Source: Longimicrobiales bacterium
Lineage (GTDB): Bacteria; Gemmatimonadota; Gemmatimonadetes; Longimicrobiales; Gaopeijiaceae
Direction of reading: 5' to 3'
Assembly (NCBI GenBank): GCA_965116905.1
Contig: OZ220732.1
Location: forward strand, 3,456,001 to 3,520,000
Length of the DNA: 64,000 bases
Position 1 is the first letter of the stretch. Every line of letters starts with the position of its first letter. The position numbers and the translations under genes were made by a program. The notes beneath the pieces are model-generated. The model was not told where the DNA came from. It made no database searches and saw only the letters and a list, made by a program, of their open reading frames with translations. Below are positions 7,063 to 16,892 of this stretch, one piece after another.

Positions 7063-7695
7063 GGCTCCCTTTCAAAAAAAGTACACTTTGTTTTACATTG
7101 TGTAAACTATACTTGACATCTATGTATTCGCGCCGATCATATCACAGAATGTCCTGCAATTGCGACTGGACAGCGATCTTTCCGCCCCAAAACACAATAT
7201 TATCGTGACCCACAGCGGCCTGCAAGAGCCTACAGGTTTCGGTAGCCAAAGGACAGTCAACTCCAGTTTACATCATGACAACTATAGTTGACAATTATTC
7301 CTAACCTGTGGCGCTACGGTTCGCACTTGCCAACTGTTCTTTACATTCAAAGCCCAGGCGTTTCCGTTTCGACGCGAGAACATGGGCCTGGGCGGAATCA
7401 CTGTCAGGCTGTCCGGCATGGCGGATAGCGAGGACGTGACAGACGACAGCGGCCAGTACTCCTTCACGGGATTGCGTGCCGGGACGTACACGGTCGAGAT
7501 CTCGGGCTTCCAGGCCACCGAGGTCAGCTTCTCGAGCACATCGAAGGCTGAGACGGTCGGCGTCGGCGAGTCGAAGGTTGTCAGCTTCGACGGCACGTAT
7601 GTCCGCACGGCGGGCATCCAGGGCCAGGTCACCATTGACGGTACGGGTCTTGAGGGCGTGACCGTGACACTTAGCGGCGAGGGCGAGGATCGCAC

Positions 7696-8856
7696 CGAGA
7701 CCACCAACGCCTCGGGGCAGTACTCGTTCGCGAATCTCAAGAAGGGCACCTACCAGGTCGGGATCACGAACCCGGATCCGGACGACTACGAGTTCCTGGT
7801 CACCTCGAAGAGCCAGACGATCGCGACGGGCGAAGTTGCGAACGTGCCGTTCGAGGGCACGCTGCTGCGGACGGCCGGCATCGCGGGCCGGGTCAGCCTC
7901 GACGACGGCATGGGCCTGGACGACGTGACGGTCACGCTTGCGGGCGCGGCCGAGGCGACGACGATGACGAAGAACGGCGGACAGTACTCGTTCGCGGGTC
8001 TGGCGGCGGGCACGTACGTGCTGAGCATCACCAACCCGGATCCCGTCGCGTACAACTTCGCTGAAGATCAGCTCCAGAGGACGGTCGTGCTGGCGGATGA
8101 CCAGTCGGCGATCGAGAACTTCGAGGGGACACACACCCGGACCGCTTCAATCTCGGGCGTGCTGTTCATCGACGAAGTCGTGCAGAACAAGGAGCACAAC
8201 GAGGGCGAGCCCTCGATCACCGCAGCGATCGCGCCGCTGGTGGCAGCCGGCGCGCTGGACGCGGAGGTCGTAGCCGGCCTGCTGGCCAAGGCGAAGGTGA
8301 AAATGCGGGGTCCGGATCTCGCCGACCCGCCGGTAGACATCGCCATCATGCCGGACGGCACGTTCTCGACGGGCGACGCCCTGATGGCCGGGTCGTACCA
8401 GCTCGAGCTGCCGGTCAACGACGATGACGTCGCGGCCGGGCTGGCCGCGGCCGGCGTTGCGTTCGTCGGCGAGTCGGAGGTGGTGACGGTTGCAGCCGGC
8501 GGCAGCGAGATGGTCAACTTCCCGTTCCGGATCACGATGCAGACGATCAGCGTCGGCGCGGTGATGGGGAACAGAGAAGAGATCACCGATCCGCCGTTGC
8601 CGGTTTCGGACGTCGACCTCGAGCTGTATCCCACGGCCGAGGATGCGGAAGACGGAACGAACATGCTGGGTGAGGGAACCACCGCCGGCCTGATGGACGA
8701 GGGCGGCATTCCAGGCATGGCCGTGTTCTCCTTCGCGCGGGCCGAAGACACCAACCCGGCCGGCGACGCCACCGACAACCTGGTATTCGTGAAGGTCGTG
8801 GGCCATCACGACGACCTGTCGGTCTCCGACAACCCGATCATCGAGATCGAGTATCC
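7696..8856. repeat. Inverted repeat block 1, left arm (pairs with 15031..16191)
   Basis: Reverse complement of 15031..16191. The only difference found is 8184/15703 (VQNK vs VPNK); alternate-frame ORF translations also match. Confidence 0.9.
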
Positions 8857-15000: not shown

Positions 15001-16892
15001 GCAGGCGCTGCATGTAGGCGCGACACACCGGGATACTCGATCTCGATGATCGGGTTGTCGGAGACCGACAGGTCGTCGTGATGGCCCACGACCTTCACGA
15101 ATACCAGGTTGTCGGTGGCGTCGCCGGCCGGGTTGGTGTCTTCGGCCCGCGCGAAGGAGAACACGGCCATGCCTGGAATGCCGCCCTCGTCCATCAGGCC
15201 GGCGGTGGTTCCCTCACCCAGCATGTTCGTTCCGTCTTCCGCATCCTCGGCCGTGGGATACAGCTCGAGGTCGACGTCCGAAACCGGCAACGGCGGATCG
15301 GTGATCTCTTCTCTGTTCCCCATCACCGCGCCGACGCTGATCGTCTGCATCGTGATCCGGAACGGGAAGTTGACCATCTCGCTGCCGCCGGCTGCAACCG
15401 TCACCACCTCCGACTCGCCGACGAACGCAACGCCGGCCGCGGCCAGCCCGGCCGCGACGTCATCGTCGTTGACCGGCAGCTCGAGCTGGTACGACCCGGC
15501 CATCAGGGCGTCGCCCGTCGAGAACGTGCCGTCCGGCATGATGGCGATGTCTACCGGCGGGTCGGCGAGATCCGGACCCCGCATTTTCACCTTCGCCTTG
15601 GCCAGCAGGCCGGCTACGACCTCCGCGTCCAGCGCGCCGGCTGCCACCAGCGGCGCGATCGCTGCGGTGATCGAGGGCTCGCCCTCGTTGTGCTCCTTGT
15701 TCGGCACGACTTCGTCGATGAACAGCACGCCCGAGATTGAAGCGGTCCGGGTGTGTGTCCCCTCGAAGTTCTCGATCGCCGACTGGTCATCCGCCAGCAC
15801 GACCGTCCTCTGGAGCTGATCTTCAGCGAAGTTGTACGCGACGGGATCCGGGTTGGTGATGCTCAGCACGTACGTGCCCGCCGCCAGACCCGCGAACGAG
15901 TACTGTCCGCCGTTCTTCGTCATCGTCGTCGCCTCGGCCGCGCCCGCAAGCGTGACCGTCACGTCGTCCAGGCCCATGCCGTCGTCGAGGCTGACCCGGC
16001 CCGCGATGCCGGCCGTCCGCAGCAGCGTGCCCTCGAACGGCACGTTCGCAACTTCGCCCGTCGCGATCGTCTGGCTCTTCGAGGTGACCAGGAACTCGTA
16101 GTCGTCCGGATCCGGGTTCGTGATCCCGACCTGGTAGGTGCCCTTCTTGAGATTCGCGAACGAGTACTGCCCCGAGGCGTTGGTGGTCTCGCTGCGGTCC
16201 TCGCCCTCGCCCAACAGCGTCACCCTCACGCCCGGAAGGCCCTCGCCGTCCACGCTCACCTGGCCCTGGATCCCCGCGGTGCGGACATAGGTGCCGTCGA
16301 AGCTGACGACCTTCGTCTCGCCCACGCCGACCGTCGCGGCGCCCGAGGTGCTCGAGAAGCTGACCTCGGTGTCCGGGAACCCCGAGATCTCCACCGAATA
16401 CGTGCCACCACGCAGCGCATCGAACTTGTAGACGCCGTCGTTGTCGGTGGTCATTTCGGCGTCCGCCATGCCCGAAAGCCTGACAGTGACGCCCGGGAGA
16501 CCCATTTTCTCTACCGTTACCGTCCCCATAATGGCTGCGGTGCGGATATAGGTGCCGCGGAAGTCCACGGTGACCGTCCCGCCGGTGTCGCCTATGCTGG
16601 CGGGAGCTGAGGTTGCATCGAAGCTGGCGTCCGCGGGGTATCCGCTGATCGTGACCGTGTAGGAGCCCTGCTCCACATTGTCAAAGCGGTAGTTCCCGCC
16701 ACCAGCCGTGGCAGTGGAGGCCCCGTTGCTAAGGGAGACGGAGATTCCGTCGACCCCCATGCCCTCGATCGACACCTGGCCCACGATGGAGCCCGTCGGC
16801 GGAGGAGGCATGACGTCCTCTCCGCACGCGGCGATGATCGGGAGCACCAGCAACGTTGCCGCCGCCAAGTACTTTCTGAGACTGTCTCTCAT
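12021..16892 (-). CDS. Large acidic surface lipoprotein (carboxypeptidase-regulatory-like repeats, C-terminal cadherin-like beta-sandwich)
   Basis: ATG at 16892: MRDSLRKYLAAATLLVLPIIAAC (lipobox). Repeats 'G.V..DG.GL.GV.V.L.G....TT...G.Y.F..L..GTY.V', very D/E-rich, C-terminal 'VRVVAQNG' and 'TSEDG'. Confidence 0.85.
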   Translation of the reverse strand: MRDSLRKYLAAATLLVLPIIAACGEDVMPPPPTGSIVGQVSIEGMGVDGISVSLSNGASTATAGGGNYRFDNVEQGSYTVTISGYPADASFDATSAPASIGDTGGTVTVDFRGTYIRTAAIMGTVTVEKMGLPGVTVRLSGMADAEMTTDNDGVYKFDALRGGTYSVEISGFPDTEVSFSSTSGAATVGVGETKVVSFDGTYVRTAGIQGQVSVDGEGLPGVRVTLLGEGEDRSETTNASGQYSFANLKKGTYQVGITNPDPDDYEFLVTSKSQTIATGEVANVPFEGTLLRTAGIAGRVSLDDGMGLDDVTVTLAGAAEATTMTKNGGQYSFAGLAAGTYVLSITNPDPVAYNFAEDQLQRTVVLADDQSAIENFEGTHTRTASISGVLFIDEVVPNKEHNEGEPSITAAIAPLVAAGALDAEVVAGLLAKAKVKMRGPDLADPPVDIAIMPDGTFSTGDALMAGSYQLELPVNDDDVAAGLAAAGVAFVGESEVVTVAAGGSEMVNFPFRITMQTISVGAVMGNREEITDPPLPVSDVDLELYPTAEDAEDGTNMLGEGTTAGLMDEGGIPGMAVFSFARAEDTNPAGDATDNLVFVKVVGHHDDLSVSDNPIIEIEYPGVSRLHAAPAHVRLLNTAVRFQFWVKSDMEARSGDMPLEGWHTLVFMGEITDDSEPLMKPDPEDATKMVNLTDPTEGDEEDDEELGRAMVSYSVDTDDLPAVFTVVVTPDSDDFAQPMAKGETWEEVGDDRLMHIHTGFELPALNTHEANDLMATYVTFTTQKLTVGAYREADDEPGFTDFQSRVSEGDHRPAAGVGLEVSVMVEATGRRGLEVYDAWDHDDDPDTDPIDATLALSGGMATFGNLPADMDFTVQFNEGSNRVAVGGPDSRSDRVQTFGADLELGTSVGAFGDMSGAGPEVKLCPLTTDMRPSSLGDDDSDCATFAYQWNTGTIEGSLDRDIEDLDVDIEAETDVHSEAPRPTETDDDGEFSVSGVQDGVYTVTMASSDDYRVVPDDGVRVSVYHDETDDDDPDDNIFGNPDTGTADFSATRLRLSIRGYAANISHETNDVVRGDETYEDAELELYAYNPNAAATVKIKKTGPVLATTMVGADGLYSFDDLDDDGTYVIVAKNTDDYEMLTTGPDVYYINNVPAQVYGDPGEASLTLPYWDYMESEGMQLASGPHPLDPTNAASPTYTFRNFALLHGDGEFSGRVVEARRDPGGIAVELRRCLTYTAFDDNDTPGDDTDDTAESCREEVAFDAQSTSASGSGRWDITSLREGYYVANIAATTYNRAKWDATNGIDDDADNCEGTAGADANCDQVRTTDMYGLLEGKRAFNRGGATFYVYNRTLDADADASDLEIKGTDASSQATINAGEVTLSTLPAGDVADGAGPGNSLHTITWASGGIKITPDIPANATFEVEVEAPIGTGGADVTVSGASGGDGDEVTLALGAHRTSTTDGSNAGDVENTVSVRVVAQNGYNDTNFSFIVTRTAPVDAQVDVGSGGLTVGTTRAGTDGVFAPALAGAEDEYTVTVPPGGGTGNTMSAYIRVFQKAGQGDLTVMHNGNAVDRMAALGGQSAQAHDYRITIARTGSLQGQRVTITNTSEDGREFTIEVALHR
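14303..14569. repeat. Inverted repeat block 2, right arm
   Basis: Reverse complement of 9306..9572. Confidence 0.85.
15031..16191. repeat. Inverted repeat block 1, right arm
   Basis: Reverse complement of 7696..8856. Confidence 0.9.

Follow-up and report, generated by a model that had tools for sequence, protein, structure and literature searches.

Candidate recombinase-driven exchange of lipoprotein tails at short in-frame sites in a Longimicrobiales genome and its relatives

The locus examined here raises the question of whether a lipoprotein gene and the truncated paralogue that faces it form a genetic switch and, if so, what operates that switch. The pair, gene B (minus strand, complete) and copy A (plus strand, 5'-less), lies in a 64,000-nt stretch of the genome of a Longimicrobiales bacterium (hereafter the window; G000:C1:3456001-3520000, on a single 4.2-Mb contig, with G000 denoting the genome under study). 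A preliminary description of the window proposed that one complete 5' end is fused to alternative 5'-less tails by DNA inversion, and that the inversion proceeds by RecA-dependent crossover in a long inverted repeat shared by A and B. The first part of this proposal is supported by sites, their orientation, and junctions across the genus. The second is not upheld: across the genus, the system is defined by a short site together with a Cre-like recombinase, and copy A is both site-less and frameshifted. We consider it likely that gene B belongs to a recombinase-driven shufflon from which copy A has been retired.

Gene B (12021..16892, read on the minus strand from 16892 to 12021) encodes a complete, acidic lipoprotein of 1623 amino acids (predicted pI of 4.1), the signal peptide of which ends in a lipobox-type IAAC at Cys23 and is followed by several SdrD_B/CarboxypepD_reg Ig-like repeats and a variable C-terminal part. 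Its invariant 5' part (16528..16892, minus strand) comprises the signal peptide and the first Ig-like domain, ends in the left arm of the site described below, and shares 94-96% nucleotide identity with other complete copies. The lipobox and the Ig-like domains suggest surface display and a corresponding function, and gene B is putatively the expression locus. Pfam searches of the lipoprotein returned no match to an S-layer domain, and a structure model of the variable part (residues 900-1623) was too poor for use (pLDDT of 42.7).

Homology of copy A (7376..11868, plus strand) to gene B begins at 7376, and its first ATG (7382) corresponds to Met130 of B, such that 129 amino acids are missing, which agrees with the facing complete and 5'-less pair that was originally described. 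The DNA upstream of copy A (left-arm region, 7232..7375, plus strand) aligns with the arm that precedes an intact site in a related genome, G062, and relative to that orthologous arm copy A lacks exactly 16 nt (the spacer, the right arm, and one base), leaving a scar at 7375..7376 (plus strand). The reading frame that starts at 7382 is open for 1344 codons and, after a frameshift within 11290..11368 (plus strand), stops at 11416; the last ~160 amino acids, including a Cadherin-like domain, are in another frame that continues to 11868. The scar and the frameshift region are each spanned with 0 differences by contigs of two sequencing runs from two studies (X1 and X2; X1 may be the source sample), with identical letters in both runs across the frameshift interval. 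Since copy A has no site and is frameshifted, it is likely to be a retired cassette that no longer serves as a partner.

The partners of gene B are to be sought outside the window. Five long paralogues were identified in G000 by tblastn (B and D, complete; A, C, and E, 5'-less), along with two short ones, and the 5'-less copies C and E bear out the prediction that further cassettes of this kind would occur elsewhere in the genome. Paralogue C (3418521, plus strand; site at G000:C1:3418524+) and paralogue E (3605166, plus strand; site at G000:C1:3605172+) both start at GGGGACGGTAACGGT, with unrelated DNA upstream. The identical 15-mer is present in gene B at 16527-16513 and is present in neither copy A nor paralogue D (3423126, plus strand), which is complete and has a mutated site. 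The inferred crossover site in B (16513..16527, minus strand) comprises a 7-bp spacer, GGGGACG (16527-16521), which is also found at C and E, and a right arm, GTAACGGT (16520-16513), and it is read in frame as codons 122-127. The cassettes C and E are 54 kb and 133 kb from the B site, respectively, both are inverted relative to B, and their frames are open for 1479 (C) and 1380 (E) codons. The peptide GTVTV is also encoded in B 18 codons upstream of the site, there with ordinary codons.

The preliminary description noted no dedicated invertase near the pair. The window itself contains no copy of the Cre-like enzyme described below, but two copies are found beside the other cassettes. A gene for a 324-amino acid tyrosine recombinase is arranged head-to-head with E and a 67%-identical gene is located just upstream of C; both are intact, and they are the only two matches of that query in G000. 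The recombinase contains a SAM-like N-domain and an integrase catalytic domain (PF02899 and PF00589 in Pfam), and all 17 of its matches in the PDB are to Cre or Tre (best E value of 4e-16). The match to Cre extends to the last residues of the protein and thus leaves no room for an extra C-terminal domain of the Rci type. The R-K-H-R-W-Y motifs occur in both copies, and these residues presumably have the roles that we assigned to them. These features suggest that the Cre-like enzyme would catalyze recombination at the site.

Matches to gene B were identified in 24 of 24 genomes of the same genus, and two runs labelled as sponge metagenome (X3 and X4) contain close relatives. The 5'-less copies begin, in frame, at a site whose layout is the same genus-wide: the left arm is variable, the spacer is 7 bp long, and the right arm is GTAACGGT. 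Cassette frames are open from this site onward. Left arms are unrelated to each other, with the exception of some arms on the recombinase side that mirror the right arm. The recombinase was detected in 37 of 53 genomes of the genus (E<=1e-60) and, in a draw of genomes across the order, in 14 of 23 from the genus versus 1 of 177 others, where the single match was partial. Among the 30 recombinase loci returned, 26 have the gene head-to-head with a 5'-less cassette; the other four comprise one with a site at a contig end, one with a site and an empty tail, and two with nothing. Screening with the site pattern yielded 102 matches in 34 of the 53 genomes (9 for the reversed control), and a site was found in 30 of 31 genomes that encode the close recombinase clade (at least 59% identity, a cut of our choosing) versus 4 of 22 genomes without that clade.

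The arrangement of these sites is that expected of inversion. Of 42 5'-less sites that share a contig with a 5'-bearing site no more than 300 kb away, 40 are inverted relative to the nearest one, with six sites beyond 300 kb left out of this count (4 inverted, 2 not). Partner distances range from 1.6 to 197 kb. The 7 bases that precede GTAAC are identical in 23 of 23 partner pairs, which were chosen by us and include G003 twice, and they comprise 9 different heptamers; 100000 shuffles of the pairs gave a mean of 5.6 and a maximum of 14 identical pairs. One genome, G061, has four spacers for four switches. The GTAAC motif is present at 56 of 58 distinct cassette junctions versus 20 of 33 complete genes, counts that are biased in that many loci were fetched around sites; the remaining 13 complete genes encode the same kind of residue with other codons.

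Loci in related genomes provide evidence for both orientations. Eight loci in the OFF state consist of 1.6-1.7-kb segments in which the recombinase gene and the 5' exon lie between inverted sites, with the 5' exon reading into a dead tail of 8-27 codons, and two further OFF loci span ~7.5 kb. The locus L110 is the reciprocal ON form of OFF locus L109 and seven others, with the 5' arm on the cassette and the recombinase arm on the dead tail. In addition, one right-hand sequence is found on two different left arms in three genomes, with identity from the spacer onward: G014 (7202 nt, 99.99%, a match that runs to the contig end), G005 (1572 nt), and G016 (240 nt). We read these double junctions as probable mixtures of orientations in the sequenced populations. 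In G043 (L123:5340-5469, G043:C317), a 5' arm is joined across the spacer to a reversed C-type, recombinase-side arm, a left arm-left arm junction that is cut at the spacer edges, apparently because both cassettes were excised by an aberrant event. Finally, the orthologue of B in G001 is 97.5% identical over its first 120 amino acids, yet it carries a tail of the C/D type.

Several side observations concern sites and recombinases in relatives. An extra G in the G-run is present at the 5'-bearing and C-type sites of G048 (L115:5412 and L115:14674) and G062 (L117:6483 and L118:6018) and shifts the frame of the fused gene; it may reflect a second switch by slipped-strand mispairing or a shared error. 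Several small switches (L109, L111, L114, L116, and L107) have a second recombinase copy on the far side of the cassette, at a distance of 7-14 kb, and no site was found beside these second copies. In G023 and G008 (L007 and L010), 19 and 15 complete paralogues were identified, respectively, and neither site nor recombinase was found with the queries used, a pattern that suggests expansion rather than shuffling. A scan of metagenomes with the site pattern returned 24 matches, 7 of which are clearly of this family, and contained no reciprocal pair among those matches.

Based on these data, we propose that the Cre-like recombinase would bind the right arms, bring together a pair of inverted sites that share a spacer, and invert the intervening segment. 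Crossover at the in-frame site (codons 122-127) would join the promoter, signal peptide, and first domain of B to silent tails, and, as GTVT is encoded by the site of every cassette, the reading frame would be preserved. The live partners in G000 would be C and E, each of which has the B spacer and an adjoining intact recombinase gene: inversion between B and C (54 kb) would swap tails, and a B-E inversion (133 kb) would bring the promoter together with the 5' exon to E. A single tail would be displayed per cell at any given time, differing spacers would insulate separate switches, and gene conversion, likely a second and slower layer, would add mosaic variation. The likely benefit would be escape from phage or host recognition. 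With moderate confidence, we extend this proposal to antigenic variation across the genus, in which a Cre-like enzyme would flip segments of 1.6 to ~200 kb and swap 4-7-kb tails onto one lipoprotein head at sites with orthogonal spacers, several such switches operating side by side in one genome. On this view, B would still exchange tails with both C and E in the G000 strain, and A would illustrate the retirement of a cassette through exact removal of its site.

A number of observations weigh against this proposal. The genomes compared are kin, the spacer pairs were chosen by hand, and many loci were fetched around sites, such that the counts are not independent tests. The cassette frame of L110, the sole small switch in the ON state, is open for only 231 amino acids, and recent duplication, with the site as its boundary, could account for the double junctions in G014, G005, and G016. 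The E-type cassettes that lie beside their recombinase are all silent (9/9), and a protein search picked out no E-type protein in the ON state, although the matches were ranked by repeat number and the search is uninformative in this respect. Synteny between G000 and G062 is not reducible to one clean C-B inversion, and inversions of 54-133 kb are long for systems of this kind. Lastly, no junction of the B 5' end with C or E was present among the listed differences and loose ends of the X1-X4 contigs, which drop rare forms, had 27 pieces not shown, and include a B-junction contig of X1 (depth of 44) that extends only 9 letters past the site.

The inverted repeat that drew attention to the locus was confirmed as first described. 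The near-identical tracts 7696..8856 (plus strand) and 15031..16191 (minus strand) are inverted copies of 1161 nt with a single mismatch (8184/15703), and a second identical tract of 267 bp (9306..9572, plus strand) pairs with 14303..14569 (minus strand). Overall A/B similarity is 92-95% over about 7439-9844, and protein identity of A to B in successive 300-amino acid blocks after the site is 91, 95, 83, 52, and 43%. A perfect run of 672 nt within flanks of 88-92% identity has a chance near 1e-23 or less. An assembly or collapse artefact was ruled out by the two-fold depth in the repeat (82-85 for contigs inside it versus 42 for single-copy parts in run X1) and by the bridging of the scar and frameshift in X1 and X2. 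The run data consist of contigs only, the phasing reach of which is exceeded by the 1161-bp repeat, and a Hi-C run (X5) yielded 1 read.

Could this repeat be the switch after all? A RecA-type crossover within it would flip 6-8.5 kb between A and B, would give B an A-derived tail that is ~160 amino acids short, and could coexist with the site-specific system. The confirmed repeat has sufficient length for homologous recombination, the identity tracts point to recent exchange between A and B, and copy A retains its long open frame. However, A is frameshifted and site-less, and a dedicated enzyme is used across the genus. Moreover, comparable tracts join the directly oriented pair C and D (990 nt) and two copies in G001 that are 1.37 Mb apart (1016, 589, and 482 nt), and the A/B tract alone is thus no sign of inversion. 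The 1161-bp identity, which begins some 320 nt beyond the site, is most likely a gene-conversion tract, and we regard a RecA-mediated A/B switch as unlikely.

A second reading, to which we assign a similarly low likelihood, is that in the G000 strain the system is a vestige or is almost locked, with B effectively fixed and C and E too distant for frequent use. Consistent with this, the X1 contigs show the assembled arrangement only, A has decayed and the D site is mutated, and the partners are 54 and 133 kb away with islands inserted between. Conversely, the spacers and right arms of B, C, and E have remained identical, the frames of C and E are open, and both recombinases are intact, whereas genes that are fixed lose the GTA codon. 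These features suggest that switching may be ongoing in this strain.

Several candidate signs of switching in the run data and in relatives were considered, and most were set aside. A loose end in X3 at 16531 that resembled an E-B fusion was explained by a native E-type contig. X3 also contains a variant with 0 differences from B in 16507-16720 and 11 in 16380-16506; it has at least 30 differences from the other cassettes, fits no known cassette, and was not counted as evidence for that reason. The G062 arrangement was not shown to be a simple inverted state of the C-B segment in G000, as the region is too rearranged, and a GC skew of +0.015 in the C-B segment versus -0.02 to -0.03 around it is confounded by gene strand and islands. 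One X4 contig carries a 5' end resembling that of B and departs at 16524, inside the G-run of the site, into 27 nt of unrelated letters, similar to an OFF or damaged junction. In X2 (depth of ~2), contigs extend across A and the 3' end of B with none over the B-specific 13074-14300; this may reflect low cover or a variant tail and is treated here as a gap rather than a finding.

Two further explanations were weighed against recombinase-driven inversion. The 5'-less copies could be donors for one-way gene conversion into B, with no inversion involved, as might be read from the mosaic identity tracts among paralogues and from a full cassette in G014 that is identical to the expressed one. This is quite improbable, since it leaves unexplained the sharp 5' border, the spacer matching, the orientation bias, the linked recombinase, and the reciprocal ON/OFF junctions. 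Least probable of all is that the recombinase moves cassettes in an integron-like fashion, or that a mobile element truncates the gene family, with inversion being incidental: the enzyme is indeed arranged head-to-head with a site that precedes a gene lacking a promoter, the G043 junction is of the deletion type, and cassette types shift between positions and species, but 40 of 42 silent sites are inverted rather than direct, the loci mapped have no second site at cassette 3' ends, and in the small switches, which are found in both states, a pair of inverted sites encloses the recombinase gene and the 5' exon.

Other features of the window touch on the expression and surroundings of the pair. 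Promoter-like matches at 7113-7140 and 7267-7295 overlap a family of operator-like palindromes upstream of copy A, and A may have its own transcription given these matches. The palindromes form a tandem pair (7079-7120 and 7253-7295) resembling TGTAAAC-N5-GTTTACA; the left-arm region likewise includes a promoter-like match together with a pair of operator-like palindromes. About 20 similar copies are present across the genome (from 26 matches to the pattern, some of which are chance or both strands of one site), and they are probably the operator of some regulator. Between the convergent genes A and B is a GC-rich hairpin (11929..11969, no strand assigned) that also occurs behind the three other long paralogues; it appears terminator-like and was not called in a scan with a terminator consensus. 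Just upstream of B, a 7.7-kb segment looks like an integrated island: it lies between 17353-17384, a 32-bp copy of the end of tRNA-Val(tac) (25067-25141, minus strand), and 25061-25141, encodes a TonB-receptor-like protein and a partner lipoprotein as judged by eye, and is absent in G048. A phage-integrase-family gene next to this tRNA (25183-27528) was absent among matches of the Cre-like query. Farther away are an LRR/Big_1/peptidase M66 lipoprotein gene (3364-7062) and a Big_9/M8 protein gene (1017-3419), which together occupy 1017-7062, and arrays of 72-bp and 255-bp repeats near 48-51 kb (47990-51020). In relatives, shufflon loci are likewise flanked by LRR genes.

Collectively, our findings suggest that an uncultured lineage of symbionts varies its surface in a programmed manner, in the way known for mycoplasmas and for the pili of plasmids. 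By counting junctions in long-read sponge metagenomes that already exist, one could learn which tail is on display in a given host, and whether phage or host cells are the driver. If the proposal is correct, the genus holds a natural set of orthogonal lox-like sites written in a reading frame, and the recombinase together with nine natural spacer variants is a candidate small orthogonal inversion toolkit. G023 and G008, with 15-19 complete paralogues and with site and recombinase not found, offer a natural contrast, potentially representing two ways to diversify one surface protein.

How does this system compare with those already known? The enzyme family is that of phage P1 Cre/loxP, Cre and Tre being the closest solved structures, and crossover here likewise appears to need spacer identity. 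The loxP site, which serves in the resolution of dimers, has 13-bp arms placed symmetrically around an 8-bp spacer, whereas the present site is asymmetric, has a 7-bp spacer, and is located inside a reading frame. In the sapA system of Campylobacter fetus, RecA-dependent inversion moves a promoter among complete genes via long conserved 5' regions, with no dedicated site. As in that system, inversion would determine which variant of a major surface protein is made; unlike it, the silent copies here lack the first 122-129 codons and are accompanied by a short site and a linked recombinase.

The sfx sites of the R64 shufflon, recombined by Rci, have a variable left arm, a 7-bp core, and a conserved right arm, as outlined in a passage of PMC11852207. 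The present system shares with R64 this asymmetric site and the apparent fusion of a constant N-terminus to alternative C-termini via inversion. It differs from R64, so described, in being chromosomal, in having dispersed 4-7-kb cassettes with partners up to 197 kb apart and a spacer that varies between switches, and in combining a 324-amino acid Cre look-alike with an Ig-repeat lipoprotein target in place of pilV. By the definition given in a passage of PMC11868660, a shufflon is a reversible switch among alleles within one locus, whereas the alleles here are dispersed. In Vpma/Xer1 of Mycoplasma agalactiae and Vsp/Mbr of Mycoplasma bovis, according to PMC2268961, switching affects entire genes, the sites being positioned in 5' untranslated regions; lipoprotein phase variation, inversion by a tyrosine recombinase, and one active promoter would be common features, but crossover here is within the coding sequence.

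The literature searched, which left subscription papers outside its scope, contained no published description of this system, and a term search of the main text of an inversion survey (PMC9881135, the supplements of which may list such loci) returned no mention of Gemmatimonad or sponge. The closest parallel, compared by description, is vsa of Mycoplasma pulmonis, where, in the account given in PMC2268961, the tyrosine recombinase HvsR inverts DNA to place a promoter, ribosome binding site, and the first 714 coding nt before silent 3' ends of lipoprotein genes. Both systems would thus join one head to silent lipoprotein tails by tyrosine-recombinase inversion. They differ, to the extent that this account describes vsa, in phylum, protein family, and site, and in that partners here are 1.6-197 kb apart, recombinases are located beside individual cassettes, and ON/OFF versions exist. 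Judged from genome sequences, these loci in sponge-associated Longimicrobiales appear to represent the vsa/shufflon-type principle in a form that was previously undescribed.

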